Below, piece by piece: positions 8,050-14,824 of a stretch of 38,662 nt of DNA; the first letter of the stretch is position 1; each line of letters begins with the position of its first letter. Both the position numbers and the translations under genes were made by a program. A model generated the notes under the pieces. The model worked only from the letters and a program-made list of their open reading frames with translations, was not told where the DNA came from and searched no databases. Source of the DNA: a virus (Duplodnaviria; Heunggongvirae; Uroviricota; Caudoviricetes); the IMG/VR virus record IMGVR_UViG_3300042524_000214, positions 1-38,662 of that record; one strand, 5' to 3'.

Positions 8050-9825
8050 TTATAGTATTTTTGTAAGTGTTAATGTCGATATATTAAAATATATACAGTT
8101 TGATATTAGCCCTGCTGCTATTGCGTTAGCATCACTACTATAAGAAGGTAATGTATTATACATTGCTCCATTTATAGTTGCTATATTCGCTGAAGGTAGT
8201 AGGTAGTCTGTTAATGGTAAGCCTTGCTTAACTAAAATTAGGCTACTTTGGTCAGACCAAACATATTTTTGAGTTGATAAAGGTATTGAACCTGTGTACT
8301 TAAAAGTACCGTAAACTGCATCCCTAGAATATACTGCTGATGCGTTTACATTAGTGAGCTCTACTATACCTGTTGCTTTATCTATTTGTACCAAATTTTT
8401 TGGAAATTCTAAATAGAACTCTCCGCCTTGTACTAACAGTGTGCTATCGCCTACCGTTCTAAAGATTGCACTTTGCCCACCAGCATTTGCCGGGTGGTTT
8501 GTTTGTTCAAAGTTTCTAACCCTCACCCAACTTGATGACCTACCTATAGGATTTGTTGGATAATCATTATCTACAATTATGTTACAAACTGTATCACTGT
8601 TTAGATAATCTACTCCATTAAATGTACTATAATTTCTTCTATTACCATTATAATCCATTATTAAGTTATAAGCTCCACCAGTGGTGTTTTTAAAGTATAA
8701 AGCACTACTTGTTGTAGGGTAAACTTTACAGTCATTAAAAGTAAATGTGCCATCATTAAACCAAGCTACGTTTTCACTTTTTATCATATAAGCATCTCCT
8801 GGTATTGTGTTTTGTGCATACACCGGTGAACCAAAGTGGGTTTGTCCTGTATTAATGTAAGCTGAACTATTTCCTATTTGCCAAGTTGCATCATTAAATT
8901 TACACTTAGTAAAAGACATTCCTGAAGTATTCTGAAAACCTGAAAATGTAGGTGAGGTATAAGATAAGTTATATACAAACTTATTTGTGTAAGCTGTTGC
9001 TATAATTACATTGTTAAACTCCATTTTTATATCGTAGTCTAGTTTTCCTGATATACTTTTTGGGTCTAGCCCAACTAAGTAAGCTGTAGAAATAAAATAG
9101 TCTTGATTACCGTAATAAGATATAGAAAAACCATTTCCTTCTATTTTTAACCTATTTACGGATATATAAGGTAAATCGCTGAATACATTCACATCATTCA
9201 ATAATTCTATTACCCCAGTGTACCCATAAATTGGTGCTAAAATTGTACCTCCATTTGGAGCATCAATAAAAGCATCAATAGCTTTTTTTAGAGTTTTATA
9301 AGGTTTAGCTCTACTACCTGTTTCTATGGCACCATAATAATAAGGGTCAACATAAAAAGTTTTTACATTTGTTACACCAGGGACTTCAATATTTATATTA
9401 TCCCCATCGTCTGAAAAAGTCAAGGTATCACTATCTAAACTTTTTGCTGTTATTAATAAACCATTCTGTGTATCATAGCTGACATCTTTTAGTATTTCTG
9501 CTACTTTTCTTCCAGAGTTTTCGGTTTTTATTGTTCTTATTTTTTGCTTACCTGTTGGGTCTACTCCGGCATATACCGGCTCTCCTTCTCCTACGCTTAA
9601 AAATTCAACACCTGAGCCTAATGCTATGCAAATAAAATTATCAAGTTGTTGTATTAATTCAGTAAGTATTGTTTTATCTTTTATTCCAGAACATTTTAAA
9701 TCCCCACCAGTGTATAAAATACAATCCGTGGATAAGTCTTTTACTGGGCAAGAGCAATCATTTGATTCACAAAGTGGTTGTTGATTGCAATCGTGACAAG
9801 TTGTATTTTGGCAATTGCTGCACAT
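8050..9825 (-). CDS. Putative tail spike/fibre with Cys-rich N-terminal module and beta-helix-like body
   Basis: 591 aa. 10 Cys in the first 66 aa. FYVDPYYYGAIETGSRAKPYKTLKKAID is typical of the start of pectin-lyase-like beta-helices, followed by N/G/F-rich strands. Confidence 0.65.
   Translation of the reverse strand: MCSNCQNTTCHDCNQQPLCESNDCSCPVKDLSTDCILYTGGDLKCSGIKDKTILTELIQQLDNFICIALGSGVEFLSVGEGEPVYAGVDPTGKQKIRTIKTENSGRKVAEILKDVSYDTQNGLLITAKSLDSDTLTFSDDGDNINIEVPGVTNVKTFYVDPYYYGAIETGSRAKPYKTLKKAIDAFIDAPNGGTILAPIYGYTGVIELLNDVNVFSDLPYISVNRLKIEGNGFSISYYGNQDYFISTAYLVGLDPKSISGKLDYDIKMEFNNVIIATAYTNKFVYNLSYTSPTFSGFQNTSGMSFTKCKFNDATWQIGNSSAYINTGQTHFGSPVYAQNTIPGDAYMIKSENVAWFNDGTFTFNDCKVYPTTSSALYFKNTTGGAYNLIMDYNGNRRNYSTFNGVDYLNSDTVCNIIVDNDYPTNPIGRSSSWVRVRNFEQTNHPANAGGQSAIFRTVGDSTLLVQGGEFYLEFPKNLVQIDKATGIVELTNVNASAVYSRDAVYGTFKYTGSIPLSTQKYVWSDQSSLILVKQGLPLTDYLLPSANIATINGAMYNTLPSYSSDANAIAAGLISNCIYFNISTLTLTKIL
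9628..9801 (-). repeat. Copy B of duplicated Cys-rich N-terminal module
   Basis: TCHDCNQQPLCESNDCSCPVKDLSTDCILYTGGDLKCSGIK... versus copy A TCHDCNQQPLCTSNDCSCPVKDLSTDCVLYTGADLACSGIK... Confidence 0.9.
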
Positions 9826-9852
9826 AACTGTATTGGTTTTATAGGTTTTTTA

Positions 9853-10107
9853 TTATGAACAACAATTATCTACTTGTATTTGTAAAGCATCAATTTGTGT
9901 TCTTAAATCTGTAATTAAATTATTCTGGTTTGTCAGCGATAATACTAAAGCTGCTACCACGTCTGATAAAAGTGTATTCCCTAATGGAAATCCCAAAGCT
10001 CTAAGTGGTGGTTCGTGTATTAAGCAAGTAGTGGGTGTGTATATCCCATTGCAAGGTTCCGTTGTAGGATTTAATACCGGTGTGTTTGTTTGGCTACATG
10101 AACTCAT
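9853..10107 (-). CDS. Small Cys-containing coiled-coil tail-associated protein
   Basis: 84 aa, 5 Cys, C-terminal heptads (ITDLRTQIDALQIQVDNCC). TAA stop, within the fibre cluster. Confidence 0.5.
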   Translation of the reverse strand: MSSCSQTNTPVLNPTTEPCNGIYTPTTCLIHEPPLRALGFPLGNTLLSDVVAALVLSLTNQNNLITDLRTQIDALQIQVDNCCS

Positions 10108-10117
10108 ATTTGTGGTT

Positions 10118-10552
10118 TTAAGGTGTTGTGTTATCTAATAAGTATCCTAGCAATTCTCCTAATGTAGAGAAAGTTCCTCCACATGGGTTATCTGGCAATG
10201 TTAAACCACAGTTTGTAATATCCATATCGCATATTGCTGTTGTCTCTAAGGTATTTACCCTATCTTTTAAATCACAAATTTCTTGTTCTAATTGTAGGAT
10301 AACATTTTTTATTATTAAACCTTGTCTACTTGGTGGGTAGTCTATGGTAGGACAATTACCCAATGCCGACATATCTATTTCAGATAAGATTTCTGCTAAG
10401 ATATTATACTGGTCTTCAGTAGTTTCCTCTAAAGTAATACAATCTTCTCCTACTAAACTAGAAAAATCTGGAACTTCTAATTCGTAGTATACGCATGTAG
10501 CATAGTTTTTTTCAGCACATGTATGTTTTATTTTATTCCCACAGTTTTTCAT
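10118..10552 (-). CDS. Cys-rich tail-associated protein
   Basis: 144 aa, 9 Cys, CVYY motif related to the fibre N-terminal module, short coiled coil. Confidence 0.55.
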   Translation of the reverse strand: MKNCGNKIKHTCAEKNYATCVYYELEVPDFSSLVGEDCITLEETTEDQYNILAEILSEIDMSALGNCPTIDYPPSRQGLIIKNVILQLEQEICDLKDRVNTLETTAICDMDITNCGLTLPDNPCGGTFSTLGELLGYLLDNTTP

Positions 10553-10692
10553 CCTTGCCCTTTGTTTAGTTTTTTGTAATTTTTTGAAGTTTTTAGTTTT
10601 GAAGTCTTGCTCTTAGCATGAATTCCTGGTCTTTTTCTTTTAGACTTTTCTCTAAAAGTTTCTGAACTAATGTTTTTATTCTTTGCTGCCAC
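10549..10692 (-). CDS. Unannotated 47-aa highly basic peptide
   Basis: GTG start after an A-rich leader. MAAKNKNISSETFREKSKRKRPGIHAKSKTSKLKTSKNYKKLNKGQG (16 K/R, 2 E). Its TGA overlaps the next ATG (ATGA coupling at 10549-10552). Confidence 0.7.
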   Translation of the reverse strand: MAAKNKNISSETFREKSKRKRPGIHAKSKTSKLKTSKNYKKLNKGQG

Positions 10693-10724
10693 TTTTTTAT
10701 ATTTTATGTTGTTAAAAATTAAAG

Positions 10725-11420
10725 GAGAGAAGAGCCCTTTATGCTATAAAAGACTCTTAGTATCTATTGGTACTAACTATAGTAAGATATACCAATCCTG
10801 TGTCTCTCTCTTTCGGAAATAAAATTCAGAACTTATTTTAAACACCCTTACGAATGCCGGAGTAATTTATCTCTAAACTACTTCACTTTCTAGACTGCTC
10901 CATCACCAAGTTTCTACGATTAGGTTATTAGCCCGAAGACCCCTATTAACCAGAGTCCCCTCGTTTCCACTCGTTAGTTTATGGCATGCACCCATTTCAG
11001 AACTGCTAAACTAGTAAGAAATCTTAAATCATTCTTCTATTTCCAGAAAACCAAACTAGTCAAAAAAGATATTCAACCTTACAAAATAACTCAAAGAGTT
11101 ATTAATTAATCTGTAACTCAACTTGCTCACAAAGGGGCAAGCCCCGATGCGAGTTCAAATTACATGGGCGAACCCACGCAACTATCAAACATATTTCACT
11201 GTCCTTTTTTAAGTTGCTGCCTCCCGTCCTGTCAAGGATAGAGAAACAATTAAAGCGTAAAGCCTACAACTTCATTTTTTAACTATCTACAAATAAGCCT
11301 GACTAAGCAGTCCTGCGACCTCACGTGCCGCTTACCTCGAAACCGAGAGTTTTGCACCTTTCGGTAACAAATGTTTAGTAGCAAATAGGTGGTTTACCCT
11401 CCCTATCAGTTCTAGTCTTC
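10725..11420 (-). ncRNA. Candidate large structured non-coding RNA (~700 nt)
   Basis: ORF-free and visibly GC-richer than its flanks. On the minus strand only: GNRA loops (ACC-GAAA-GGT, GCGGCAC-GTGA-GGTCGC, GGCATTC-GTAA-GGGTGTT), two UUCG loops, a CUUG loop, 8-13 bp helices with G-U pairs, and a long-range pairing of 11407-11414 with 10998-11005. Confidence 0.75.
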
Positions 11421-11431
11421 TTTTAATATTT

Positions 11432-12274
11432 TTATGCTTGTTGTTCTACAACGTCTTGCCCCGGTAAAGGTCTCTTTTTATCTACTGGAAGTACCTCTAT
11501 AATTTTTTCTAATCTGCCTTTAGCAATAATTAAATTGTCTAATACTGGTTTTAAGTTTGTATAAAGTCTTTGTCTATATTCTGATACCCCTAATACCCCG
11601 GTAGTCTCATACATAGTTACTAGTTCTTTTGTTGCCTCAAGCACGCCTGATTTATTTAGCGTTTCCAATAGAAATAGTTCTCTATCTATAACTACGGACA
11701 CCCCTAAAGTTTGTTTTTTTATTGAGGATAATCTTCTAATAGCTCTTTCTGCATTTAGTATCTCCCCTTCTATTTTATCTAATCCCTCTTTTAATTTAAT
11801 AGTTGTTGCTCCAACTTCTCTTAGGTATACCTCTTCAAAAATATTTTCCTCTATGGTGATTATATCTAATGTATAACTAGAGTCTTTTTTTGGTGCTTCT
11901 GTAAAGTAGAAACTCGTAAAAATATAAGGTGTTTGTCCGTTTGCTACTCTATTTAATATAAAGTCATTTAATAATTCATTATCATCTGATATTGTAACAA
12001 ATGATGTTTTTTTTCCATCAATGACTAGAGATAATGATAGACTAAAATATACTACTTGGTCTAATAGTTCTGGTACGTCAAAACTTAATGACTTAGATAA
12101 GTTTTTTTTATTTACTTTTCCTATTTTTTTTACTAATATCTCTCCAAAATCATTCCAAACAAGTATGTCATAGTCTACTATAGAGGACATGTTGTCTAAT
12201 GCTCCCAAATTAAATTCTGGGTGCTCGTAGATATTTATGTTTAATTTTTTTGTTTTGCTGTCAGAACTAATCAT
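11432..12274 (-). CDS. Hypothetical protein (tail region)
   Basis: 280 aa. Beta-rich N-terminal half and helical/coiled-coil C-terminal half. No motif recognised. Confidence 0.6.
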   Translation of the reverse strand: MISSDSKTKKLNINIYEHPEFNLGALDNMSSIVDYDILVWNDFGEILVKKIGKVNKKNLSKSLSFDVPELLDQVVYFSLSLSLVIDGKKTSFVTISDDNELLNDFILNRVANGQTPYIFTSFYFTEAPKKDSSYTLDIITIEENIFEEVYLREVGATTIKLKEGLDKIEGEILNAERAIRRLSSIKKQTLGVSVVIDRELFLLETLNKSGVLEATKELVTMYETTGVLGVSEYRQRLYTNLKPVLDNLIIAKGRLEKIIEVLPVDKKRPLPGQDVVEQQA

Positions 12275-12275
12275 T

Positions 12276-12668
12276 TTATTTAAAGTTTTTTATTGATGTT
12301 ACTATACCGTTTTTTATTGATGCTTTACTGTTACCGAGTATAAATGTACCTGTTACTCCTCTTTGTTCCGAAACTATCCTATCTAATTCAGATATTTTTT
12401 GTTCCATTATTTCTATAATTCCTATTAAAAACTCTATAGCATCATTATGCGTAGTTGTCTTTTTAATACTTTTAAGAATCCTATCTGTATGCTTTGTTGA
12501 TGCTACTTGATTTTCTATGTCATATAGTGTTAACTCTTTGGTTTCTTTTACGGTGCCCCCCTCGGATAAAAATTTTACGTATTCTTTATAAGCTGGGTTA
12601 ATGTCCTCCATTATAAGCCTTTCTCCATCTACAGCTATTGTGCCTTGTCTATTTATAGTATATTCCAT
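12276..12668 (-). CDS. Putative tail-fibre-associated protein
   Basis: 130 aa. YKEYVKFLSEGG resembles fibre-chaperone N-termini, and GVTGTF...IKNGIVTSI resembles tail-protein C-terminal motifs. TAATG coupling to the upstream fibre gene. Confidence 0.45.
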   Translation of the reverse strand: MEYTINRQGTIAVDGERLIMEDINPAYKEYVKFLSEGGTVKETKELTLYDIENQVASTKHTDRILKSIKKTTTHNDAIEFLIGIIEIMEQKISELDRIVSEQRGVTGTFILGNSKASIKNGIVTSIKNFK

Positions 12669-14824
12669 TAGCTTGATATTGCGTTTCTTTTAGTTGCTAT
12701 ACATCCGTAATCTTTAATACTACATGCTCCTGATACAGCTGTATTGTTACCTATCCAAAGAAAAGGATAATAGCTTGCACCTGTATTGTAATCACTTGTA
12801 ATACTATAAGAAGTGCTTGTTACAACTCCTGTTGAGTTTACTATCTTAGTCAATTCAATAAAAATTACTGGTACTTGAAAAAGTTTGTATATTCTTAGTT
12901 TGTATGTGCATGTTGTATCAGTTCCTAAAAATCCTGAACCTAAGTCTATACTTGATGCTGTTCCTGTAGCATCATTCCATACAAAAAATAAATTTGGTGA
13001 ACCTTGTAATTTTGCTACTCCTATAGAGTTTATAAGAGTTGTTGGCTCTACATTAGTTGGGGCTGTCGTGTTATATAATGATGATATTCCTACGAATAAC
13101 CTTTGTGCTCCATTGTTAGTGTTTACTCTAAATTTTCTAATTATTTCAAATTGAAAGCCGACACCTAAATAGCCTGAGCCTCCAAATGGATTACCATATA
13201 AACCGGCTGCTGAACCAACTGCTGTTGCTGTTGTATATAAAACCCCCATTGGATTTTCACTTAGTGAAGTTGCTGTACCAAAACTTGTCAATGTTCCACC
13301 AACTCTTAATGTATCATAAAATGTAATACTATCCATTGGTAAGAAGTAAGCAAACTGGTTTGTCATAAACTTGTCGTACAAAAATGTACTGTCGTTTGCT
13401 GGAGTATATCCTAACCATGCAGCTATTGTCTTGTTTACCCAAAGTGTTCCATTAAATCCTAATACATCTCCATTTACTGGGATTGTAGTCTTTAAGTCCA
13501 CATTATGTAGCTCTTCTATCTCAAATCCGTTTTGTACCTTAACAAAAATTTCTCCATTACCGGCACTAACTTTTGTTACTATTCCTATGAATACTAGATG
13601 AGCCGGTGCGTAAGGTTTCCCTACTAATCCATAGATTAACGCTCCATTTACCCCTAACCATACTGGGTCTCCTGCTGTTTGTCCTGCTGTATTTAATCCT
13701 CCTAAAAGACCTTCAGTAACTACAAATCCTGTTTGTGTTCCACCGGTAGTTGTAATATCGGATTGCATCAATCCTATAGTCTTACTTGAGGTGGCTTCAG
13801 AAGTGTTGCTCGCTGCTCTTACAAGTATGTTGGTTCCATTTGCTCCTGTAGAATATACTGGAGTACCTTTTGTTATTAAGGCAGTTCCGTCATTTTTTAC
13901 AATGTGTTTTACTACAGAAGTCCAATCAGCATAATTTTCTTGCCAAGTAGCGTTATAATCTGTAGCATCTACTTTTGTAAGTATCTGTCCTGCTGTACCT
14001 CCTGGTGGTAATGTTCCAACAGTTAATGGTGCTAAATCTGCAAAGGTTACGTAGTTACTTACACCATTACCATTATTTATAAATGAGGATGTGCTTGTAG
14101 GTCTATTCCTTAAAAAGGATGAACCTGATGTAGCTGCCCAATCTGTTTGTTCTTGGTCTATTAAATTTCCTACTCCTAAATCTGTCCAGTATAAATTTCC
14201 ACCTATTGCTGGTGTAATACTGTCGTTATTAAAATTAGCTCGAAATATATGACCAGAATAGTAAACTAATGTTCCTGCTAAATATGGATTACCTGTTGCT
14301 GCTATGTGGTTTGTTGTCCACTCTGTTGCTGCTAATGCCGATGGTGGTATGGATGCTGCTGTTATATAACCTGCATCATTAACCAATTCTGAAATATTAT
14401 CTCCTGGCTGTATTGCACTATTAATTAGTGCTTGTAATGTTCCAGAAATTTGTAACTCTAAAGCTGAAGATGTACTTACTATATCTATAGACCCATCTGG
14501 GCTAGTTATAGGCTTTACAAAGAGCTTTCCGTCACTCGTGGCTATCTCTAATAGATTTCCTAATTCGGAGCTCTTAAAAGTGCTTATATCAATTATTGGG
14601 TTTACTGGACTTCCTGTTACCCCTGTTCCGGTTACTGATTGTACAGTTCCTGTTCCTCCTCCACCGCCCCCGGTTAAATCCACTAAAGGATAAGGAAAAC
14701 CGTTTTGGTCTGTTATATATGTTTTAACAGTACTTTGAGAAGTTGCTTTTACATAATACACAGAGTTTGGTCTGGGTAATGTAGGTAGGCTTTTTACTTT
14801 ATAGTGTTTTACTTCTTCTTGCAT
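12668..14824 (-). CDS. Tail fibre protein
   Basis: 718 aa, G/T/A-rich, with a Gly linker (TGGGGGGTG). Modular segments (ISELVNDAGYIT; KGTPVY...GLLGGLNT...KPYAPAHLVFIG...NGEIFVKVQNG) are common in aquatic phage fibres. Confidence 0.75.
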   Translation of the reverse strand: MQEEVKHYKVKSLPTLPRPNSVYYVKATSQSTVKTYITDQNGFPYPLVDLTGGGGGGTGTVQSVTGTGVTGSPVNPIIDISTFKSSELGNLLEIATSDGKLFVKPITSPDGSIDIVSTSSALELQISGTLQALINSAIQPGDNISELVNDAGYITAASIPPSALAATEWTTNHIAATGNPYLAGTLVYYSGHIFRANFNNDSITPAIGGNLYWTDLGVGNLIDQEQTDWAATSGSSFLRNRPTSTSSFINNGNGVSNYVTFADLAPLTVGTLPPGGTAGQILTKVDATDYNATWQENYADWTSVVKHIVKNDGTALITKGTPVYSTGANGTNILVRAASNTSEATSSKTIGLMQSDITTTGGTQTGFVVTEGLLGGLNTAGQTAGDPVWLGVNGALIYGLVGKPYAPAHLVFIGIVTKVSAGNGEIFVKVQNGFEIEELHNVDLKTTIPVNGDVLGFNGTLWVNKTIAAWLGYTPANDSTFLYDKFMTNQFAYFLPMDSITFYDTLRVGGTLTSFGTATSLSENPMGVLYTTATAVGSAAGLYGNPFGGSGYLGVGFQFEIIRKFRVNTNNGAQRLFVGISSLYNTTAPTNVEPTTLINSIGVAKLQGSPNLFFVWNDATGTASSIDLGSGFLGTDTTCTYKLRIYKLFQVPVIFIELTKIVNSTGVVTSTSYSITSDYNTGASYYPFLWIGNNTAVSGACSIKDYGCIATKRNAISS

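Follow-up and report, generated by a model that had tools for sequence, protein, structure and literature searches.

A new family of large, multi-domain structured RNAs in the tail-fibre cassette of uncultured freshwater phages

The gene-free stretch and its relatives

We analyzed 38.7 kb at the start of an IMG/VR phage record of 131,453 bp (IMGVR_UViG_3300042524_000214), referred to below as the window (38,662 nucleotides (nt), the whole stretch of DNA under study), in which an earlier note made from the sequence alone had proposed that a structured RNA of ~700 nt, devoid of any open reading frame (ORF), is embedded in the tail-fibre operon. As delimited here by comparison with relatives, the RNA extends over 10721-11421 on the minus strand, beginning with the P1 5′ strand and finishing where the closing helix of its 3′ domain ends, and the genes around it lie on the same strand. 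Directly upstream is an ORF of 280 amino acids (aa; 11432-12274), present with the RNA in every relative, which is preceded by the two other ORFs of the cassette, one of 130 aa and a fibre-like one of 718 aa (12276-14824), in the gene order of the RNA-bearing relatives. Downstream, about 30 nt after the RNA, a GTG codon starts the gene of a 47-aa Lys/Arg-rich protein (10549-10692), which shares an ATGA overlap with the gene of a 144-aa virion protein (10118-10552; phrog_30281); the homologue of the latter in Cellulophaga phage phi17:2, gp056, is annotated as a structural protein.

The interval between the stop codon of the 280-aa ORF and the GTG of the 47-aa ORF (10693-11431, 739 nt) is the largest ORF-free gap of the window and, as the earlier note had it, is richer in GC than its flanks (0.36-0.40 versus 0.26-0.33). 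None of the six frames is open; TAA and TAG interrupt each of them and TGA interrupts four, so that reassigning any single stop codon would leave all of them closed. No ORF of 25 aa or more was found at a conserved position in the relatives of the RNA. An alternative genetic code was ruled out on these grounds, as was a frameshifted ORF, which was looked for in the relatives and not found. The minus strand folds with an energy of -197.4 kcal/mol (z = -3.5), compared with -136 kcal/mol (z = -2.1) for the plus strand, and in the alignment of the 3′ half 78 of 486 paired cells are G-U wobbles that would be A-C mismatches on the other strand, which therefore fixes the strand of the RNA as minus. 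No transfer RNA (tRNA) or transfer-messenger RNA was detected in the 38.7-kb window with ARAGORN.

Relatives were found through homologues of the 280-aa protein (54-95% identity) and of the 144-aa protein, which led to lake-metagenome contigs in ENA/Logan; in the gaps of these contigs nhmmer detected homologues of the RNA with E-values of 1e-80 to 1e-254. Eight distinct full-length RNAs are available, namely the window, a near-identical copy of it (L070), L142/143, L076-78, L072/73, L071, L129 and L075, together with two 5′ fragments (L074 and L128), and in the relatives the RNA measures from ~520 nt (L075) to ~735 nt. Every contig with a 280-aa homologue presents the same gene order, consisting of a fibre-like protein (673-957 aa), a protein of 128-131 aa, the homologue itself (263-280 aa), the gap, a basic protein and a protein of 143-146 aa. 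Between variants the nucleotide identity is 68-87% in the RNA and 67-87% in the adjacent protein genes, and the alignment of the RNA displays invariant unpaired blocks, conserved junctions, helices that vary yet remain paired, and insertions or deletions of whole hairpins. The family is defined by helices P1, P2/P2a and P3/P3b, a three-way 3′ domain and the blocks AGAUAGUUAAAAAAUGAAGUU, UUGAAUAUCUUUUUUGACUAGUUUGG and GAGACACAGGAUUGGUA, and these defining helices and blocks were found in all eight full-length RNAs.

Architecture of the RNA

The 3′ half was modelled with RNAalifold and covariance-model realignment, giving 61 pairs in which 96.7% of the cells are canonical. Sixteen of these pairs are changed on both sides, compared with 4.3±1.6 in column shuffles (none of 500 reached 16) and 1-3 when the partners were slid by 1-3 columns, so that covariation among homologues, on which the earlier note had made its proposal depend, is present. 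In the 5′ half compensatory changes occur in 15 of 54 curated pairs and 94.8% of the cells are canonical. Imposing the comparative helices on the window sequence gave a fold 4.6 kcal/mol above the free minimum, and GNRA and UUCG loops as well as hairpin-sized insertions and deletions are further signs of structure. With its closed frames, its fold z-score, its covariation and its G-U pairs, the stretch is what the earlier note took it for, a minus-strand structured RNA without an ORF in the tail-fibre operon. The comparison shows an architecture in which P1, P2 and P2a form a rod with two variable peripheral domains, P3/P3b enclose a central domain, and the 3′ domain is a three-way element.

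P1 joins AGAAGACUAGA (11411-11421) to UUUGGUUUUCU (11045-11055) and comprises 12 base pairs (bp) in all variants; in L075 three of its pairs are changed on both sides (AGGUAG/CUACCU). The 5′ strands of P2 (AGUUAAAAAA) and P2a (GGCUUUAC) lie within 11257-11284 and the 3′ strands of P2a (GUAAGGUU) and P2 (UUUUUUGACU) within 11058-11082; both comparison and the constrained fold give these helices, which contain a conserved internal loop and extend P1 into a rod of ~35-45 bp. P2a covaries among CUUUAC/GUAAGG, CUCUAC/GUAGAG and CUUUAU/AUAAAG, and a GA/UC step of the P2/P2a rod is GG/CC in L129. An alifold pairing of the P1 5′ strand with AGUUGUAGACUCU in the 5′ half was rejected because it clashes with the covarying P2a and stems from a misaligned L075. 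The palindrome UCUAGA was considered as a dimerisation site and found no support, L075 having UAUAGA.

The peripheral 5′ domain (11290-11407) is composed of H2 (11402-11407/11384-11389), P1.1 (11374-11377/11290-11293), the GAAA hairpin H3 (11351-11371), H4 (11336-11347), H5 (11315-11331) and H6 (11299-11310), with compensatory changes in H2, P1.1, H3, H5 and H6, and in L071 and L075 the whole domain is swapped for one short hairpin. The variable middle domain (11085-11256), which lies inside P2a, consists of five hairpins that form in the constrained fold (11227-11238, 11178-11217, 11164-11177, 11126-11153 and 11085-11103). L071/L072 lack ~100 nt of it and L129 has hardly any of it, and its hairpin Hm1 (UCCU/AGGA), unchanged among seven sequences, is imperfect in L075. 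The 5′ and middle domains are dispensable, since L071, L075 and L129 have single hairpins in their place or have lost most of them.

Directly after P1 begin the long-range helices P3 and P3b, whose 5′ strands (GGAAAUAGAA and GAUUUA, respectively; 11025-11044) pair with UAAGUU (P3b) and UUUUAUUUCC (P3) within 10815-10835. Over six variants 5 of the 10 pairs of P3 are changed on both sides and 98.8% are paired, and in P3b a C-G pair is changed to U-A. Between their strands lies the central domain (10836-11024), with the most conserved unpaired blocks and the hairpins HL (loop CUGAAAU; 10988-11006), Hx1 (10935-10960), Hx3 (10861-10882) and Hx4 (10841-10858). At positions 3560-3590 of L072, and at the equivalent position of L142, a tandem direct repeat of two GGCAGGCAUGAAA units stands in place of the CUGAAAU-loop hairpin.

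The 3′ domain (10721-10814) is closed by P4 (10805-10810/10725-10730) and bears hairpin A (10766-10796) and hairpin B (10731-10757), the latter a 12-13 bp stem that looks terminator-like in a simple scan. The segment GGAUUGGUA (10790-10798) has an alternative 9-bp partner in UACUAGUUU (11008-11016), and since it overlaps the 5′ strand of hairpin A the two pairings compete. Substitutions within GGAUUGGUA in L129 and L075 are compensated at both alternative partners, which suggests that the RNA adopts either of two conformations that exclude each other, or forms a pseudoknot by which the 3′ domain is remodelled. We regard the alternative pairing as real. The metatranscriptome contigs described below stop at 10798, which is the first base of the GGAUUGGUA segment.

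Most helices of the earlier note recur in this model. Covariation or conservation was counted in the relatives for ATAGG/CCTAT, ACC-GAAA-GGT, CTCG-GTTT-CGAG, GCGGC..GTCGC, TCCT-TGAC-AGGA, GGCATTC-GTAA-GGGTGTT, ATTGGTA/TACCAAT and the 13-bp 3′ hairpin, and the stems GCAACT/AGTTGC, GTGGG-TTCG-CCCAT, CTCGCA..TGTGAG with GGGG-CTTG-CCCC, and AATAACTC/GAGTTATT are present in the constrained fold and, as judged by eye, kept in the relatives. Other proposals had to be replaced or dropped. The relatives favour the register CUGC-NNNN-GYAG over the GACT/AGTC hairpin and back GGGGACUCU/GGGGUCUUC instead of the UUCG-capped GGTTA..TTCG..TAACC (10923-10951), and the ACTAGT/ACTAGT closure is not conserved in them. 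An 8-bp long-range helix TAGAACTG/CAGTTCTG has partners that are non-complementary in L072 or L078, the real long-range helices being P1, P2/P2a and P3.

Sequence searches, the cassette and a second lineage

The whole window gave no match to Rfam 15 at the gathering score, and at E<=10 with permissive filters only chance-level hits were returned for the window RNA, the minimal variant L075 and the second-lineage RNA described below, the models of GOLLD, ROOL, OLE, group I and II introns, RNase P and riboswitches being absent from these lists. The GOLLD (RF01998) and ROOL (RF03087) covariance models did not match the window RNA or L075, nor did the group I intron model (RF00028) at E<=10; the group II intron models (RF00029, RF02001 and relatives) were likewise without a match at E<=10, and the 5′ end of the RNA reads AAAUAUUAAAAG. 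No match to the RNA was found by blastn among 50,697 cultured-phage records, or in IMG/VR scanned with two exact conserved-block patterns. Four IMG/VR matches to a 3′-domain pattern proved unrelated, 49 pattern matches in JGI (Joint Genome Institute) metagenome contigs included no family member by nhmmer, and the four matches in a scan of GTDB genomes were all due to chance. The family is established as new, being neither in Rfam nor found in the collections searched. A published catalogue with 10,006 candidate structured RNAs of viruses admitted a family only when it had three IMG/VR regions (PMC10690425), and the IMG/VR scans made here found no other copy of this family. The earlier note had left the choice between a GOLLD/ROOL-like and a new large non-coding RNA (ncRNA); the new family stands, and a relationship to GOLLD or ROOL by sequence or model does not, there being no Rfam match. 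The resemblance of a sequence to GOLLD suggested there was not borne out either, because the Rfam searches gave no GOLLD match.

The assignment of the phage as crAss-like was imprecise, as the nearest cultured relatives belong to Lightbulbvirus, namely the Cellulophaga phages phi17:2 and phi4:1, and a major virion protein of 564 aa is 47% identical. At the position equivalent to the RNA, beside gp056, phi17:2 has no gap. Closer, uncultured relatives without the RNA (the L063 group, L134-141 and L144) keep the basic-protein and 144-aa genes and have other fibre cassettes upstream, that of L144 with a fibre carrying a Peptidase_S74 domain; their genes are complete on both sides and a short spacer occupies the position of the RNA. 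Given that relatives with other cassettes are without the RNA, it belongs to one swappable cassette made up of the fibre-like protein, the 130-aa protein, the 280-aa protein and the RNA itself. The region upstream of the basic-protein gene (11432-14824 in the window, and its counterparts in L063, L134 and L144) is a swap site that has received at least four different receptor-binding or fibre cassettes in phages whose gene order is otherwise unchanged. The small K/R-rich protein (44-47 aa; 47 aa in the window) is kept in all relatives, including distant RNA-less ones, and its ORF is therefore a real gene with a core role independent of the RNA. Its start codon is GTG in 7 of 7 RNA-bearing lineages (10690-10692 in the window) and ATG in the 3 of 3 RNA-less lineages examined (L063 at 4871, L134 at ~2870 and L144 at ~2870).

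The family of the 280-aa protein amounts to 13 clusters among 1.84 billion representatives, and nothing in PHROGs or Pfam corresponds to it. An AlphaFold model (pLDDT, the predicted local distance difference test, 68.5) has an N-terminal beta-sandwich and C-terminal helices, and fold searches with it gave no significant match, only weak beta-sandwich or adhesin-like ones. Profile scans of IMG/VR with the family found only the contigs L010 and L011, which encode homologues of 339 and 349 aa (~26% identity, with the N- and C-terminal regions conserved) in phages of another backbone, where a tail-sheath gene lies downstream.

Directly after these homologues, at 8680-9460 in L011 and 8795-9585 in L010, lies a structured RNA of ~780 nt that is also free of ORFs. 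It has a fold z-score of -4.1 and compensatory changes between the two copies, and at its 3′ end a covarying intrinsic terminator is followed by a new transcription unit with a tail-sheath-like gene. A covariance model of the 3′ half of the window family (R1) did not detect the L010/L011 RNAs; the two RNAs are positional counterparts, and their homology is unproven. A short resemblance between the two RNAs (AACGAGUGGAAACGAGG against AACGGUGGAAGCGAGG) is confined to the window variant, may be chance, and was set aside.

Expression and interpretation

The stretch occurs in lake and freshwater metagenomes of 13 studies, and two runs recorded as metatranscriptomes, from different studies (2017 and 2019), contain ~80% of the sampled words of the RNA; two further RNA runs, X21 and X22, with 0.04 of the words, were left out of the conclusion on expression. 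When the contigs of the two metatranscriptomes were placed on positions 8500-14000 of the window, a contig of 605 nt spanned 10798-11402 and others covered 10798-11207 and 11186-11409, all with 0 mismatches and with depths over the RNA of 7-35. In neither metatranscriptome did any RNA contig fall on the flanks (8500-10707 and 11444-14000), which two DNA runs do cover. Because carry-over of DNA would have covered the flanks equally, these data show that the RNA accumulates in nature far above the neighbouring messages. Run X8 contains, at window positions 10819-11409, a second family member that is ~10% divergent and comes from the same lake RNA sample, so that more than one variant seems to be expressed at the same time. 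The host-type promoter box TAnnTTTG does not occur on the minus strand from 11193 to 11836, and a sigma-70 scan gave hits at chance level. Since no promoter motif was found upstream, the RNA is most likely part of a long late virion-operon transcript.

The stretch is almost certainly a real, selected and expressed structured RNA, and on balance we favour the view that it belongs to a new family of large (~520-735 nt), multi-domain ncRNAs, stable and expressed late, in uncultured freshwater phages related to phi17:2 and phi4:1. Such an RNA would be transcribed within the late virion operon, and it would be released from the operon transcript or outlast it as a stable species. The RNA, or a particle that it forms with protein, would then work late in infection, as proposed for GOLLD and ROOL, and its job may be tied to the single tail-fibre cassette with which it is always inherited. 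That it acts in this way, being of a kind with GOLLD and ROOL and working as a stable late RNA, alone or in a particle with protein, rather than in cis, we regard as an evenly balanced question.

Several points weigh against this view. The covariation is real but thin, because only about six independent lineages underlie it, and the junctions of the central domain are only partly resolved. Contigs cannot yield the strand, the true level or the true ends of the RNA, and the positions at which they stop in common, 10798 and 11402/11409, may mark true ends or breaks in assembly at blocks common to the variants. In its predicted model the 280-aa neighbour looks to be without a recognisable RNA-binding fold, and the RNA's lack of a promoter of its own together with a terminator-like 3′ hairpin also fits a cis-acting role.

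A cis-acting role, the main rival, would make the RNA a very large processing, stability or attenuation device of the late operon at the 3′ end of the fibre cassette, in which a conformational switch of the 3′ domain would set transcription or translation into the downstream virion genes. This we judge rather unlikely, although a number of features point to it. The RNA is without its own promoter, its 3′ domain terminates in the terminator-like 13-bp hairpin, and the exclusive pairings of UACUAGUUU with GGAUUGGUA and of hairpin A are each preserved by compensatory changes; moreover, the next gene is initiated by GTG where the RNA is present and by ATG where it is not, and the L010/L011 RNA has at its end a covarying intrinsic terminator, beyond which a new transcription unit begins. 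On the other hand, a length of 500-700 nt with conserved unpaired blocks exceeds the needs of known attenuators and stabilisers, the RNA accumulates alone, with both flanking messages undetectable in the same RNA contig sets, and relatives without the RNA express the same downstream genes.

The RNA might instead act in trans as an antisense or sponge, its exposed UACUA(G/U/A) pairing with the UAGUAUG start-site module of ~21 early genes in a late shut-off, which we hold to be improbable. The conserved block UUCUUACUAGUUUAGC ranks first and second among 240 16-nt windows for specific duplex energy, with means of -7.6 to -7.9 kcal/mol at the 21 module start sites versus -3.9 at other starts, and TAGTATGAAA occurs about 11-12 times in this genome versus four times in each of two RNA-less relatives. 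No other part of the RNA complements the module as well as the block around UACUAGUUU. The energy test is not independent, however, because the complementarity had been noticed before testing, and the pairings are of 6-9 bp only, other family members show no enrichment of UACUA (p = 0.3-0.7), and the central motif is altered in L129 and L075. A self-splicing intron that is degenerate or has no ORF, or a mobile RNA element of another sort, would account for the size, the patchy distribution and the location in a recombination-prone cassette, but the group I and group II models found no match at E<=10 on three variants, the 5′ end is not GUGYG, and a domain V-like hairpin is missing. Furthermore, no gene is interrupted, the RNA-less relatives have intact genes on both sides of a short spacer, and spliced joints are absent from RNA and DNA contigs, all of which makes this origin very improbable. 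A spacer without function, or a decayed gene, that simply happens to fold well is hardly credible as an account of the stretch, since nothing beyond the lack of a known function speaks for it, and compensatory changes, a nucleotide conservation matching that of the flanking coding sequence and the RNA's selective build-up in RNA libraries speak against it.

The RNA and the 280-aa protein might form a dedicated ribonucleoprotein of the tail-fibre apparatus or its assembly, or the RNA might assemble with itself into a multimer in the manner of ROOL and GOLLD. The idea comes from two unrelated phage backbones, in each of which a member of the 280-aa family is paired with a large structured RNA, and we consider it doubtful; if true, the fibre cassette could not function without its RNA part.

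GOLLD and ROOL are phage-borne RNAs of unknown function that form RNA-only cages (PMC12286853). GOLLD, which was first seen in lake metagenomes and whose expression rises late in infection (PMC12286853), resembles the present RNA in being phage-encoded, several hundred nt long and multi-domain, with a more variable 5′ and a conserved 3′ part. It may differ in location, being usually found by tRNA islands; the present RNA belongs to a tail-fibre cassette, and the window contains no tRNA. ROOL, likewise large and ornate, occurs in phages and prophages and is not known to have a protein partner (PMC12286853, PMC5737381), yet its genomic context and host range are other than those of the freshwater phages considered here, which are of Bacteroidota type, and neither GOLLD nor ROOL gave a covariance-model match at any threshold tried. 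OLE (RF01071) is comparable in its ~600 nt, its intricacy, its conserved unpaired blocks and its place next to a dedicated protein gene, and it works as a ribonucleoprotein (PMC9723947). It differs in being a cellular RNA of Gram-positive extremophiles and anaerobes, its model finds no match here, and the 280-aa protein is unrelated to the OLE-associated proteins. The pRNA of phi29 is another phage-encoded structured RNA and is part of the virion assembly machinery, and a virion-linked RNA of the sort imagined in the earlier note would resemble it; however, it is ~170 nt long, is transcribed early from the genome end, is in Rfam and has no similarity to this RNA.

To our knowledge only a few very large and intricate RNAs of bacteria and phages have been described, among them GOLLD, ROOL, OLE, raiA and HEARO. 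Each of them has revealed structural or biochemical principles that were new. The present RNA comes in an informative context, co-inherited with a swappable fibre cassette and a neighbouring protein, without its own promoter and abundant in lake metatranscriptomes, and its natural minimal (~520 nt) and decorated (~735 nt) versions mark the core of the RNA and provide a defined construct for structural work. Given this context, these size variants and this abundance, the purpose of large phage RNAs should be more testable here than for the RNAs of tRNA islands.

A further observation concerns the early-gene start module TAAAYTARYTAGTATGAAA in the 49-88 kb part of the genome, where 21 ORF starts are preceded by TAGTATG. 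This module is complementary over 6-9 nt to the UACUAGUUU block (window 11003-11020) and is about three times commoner here than in two RNA-less relatives.

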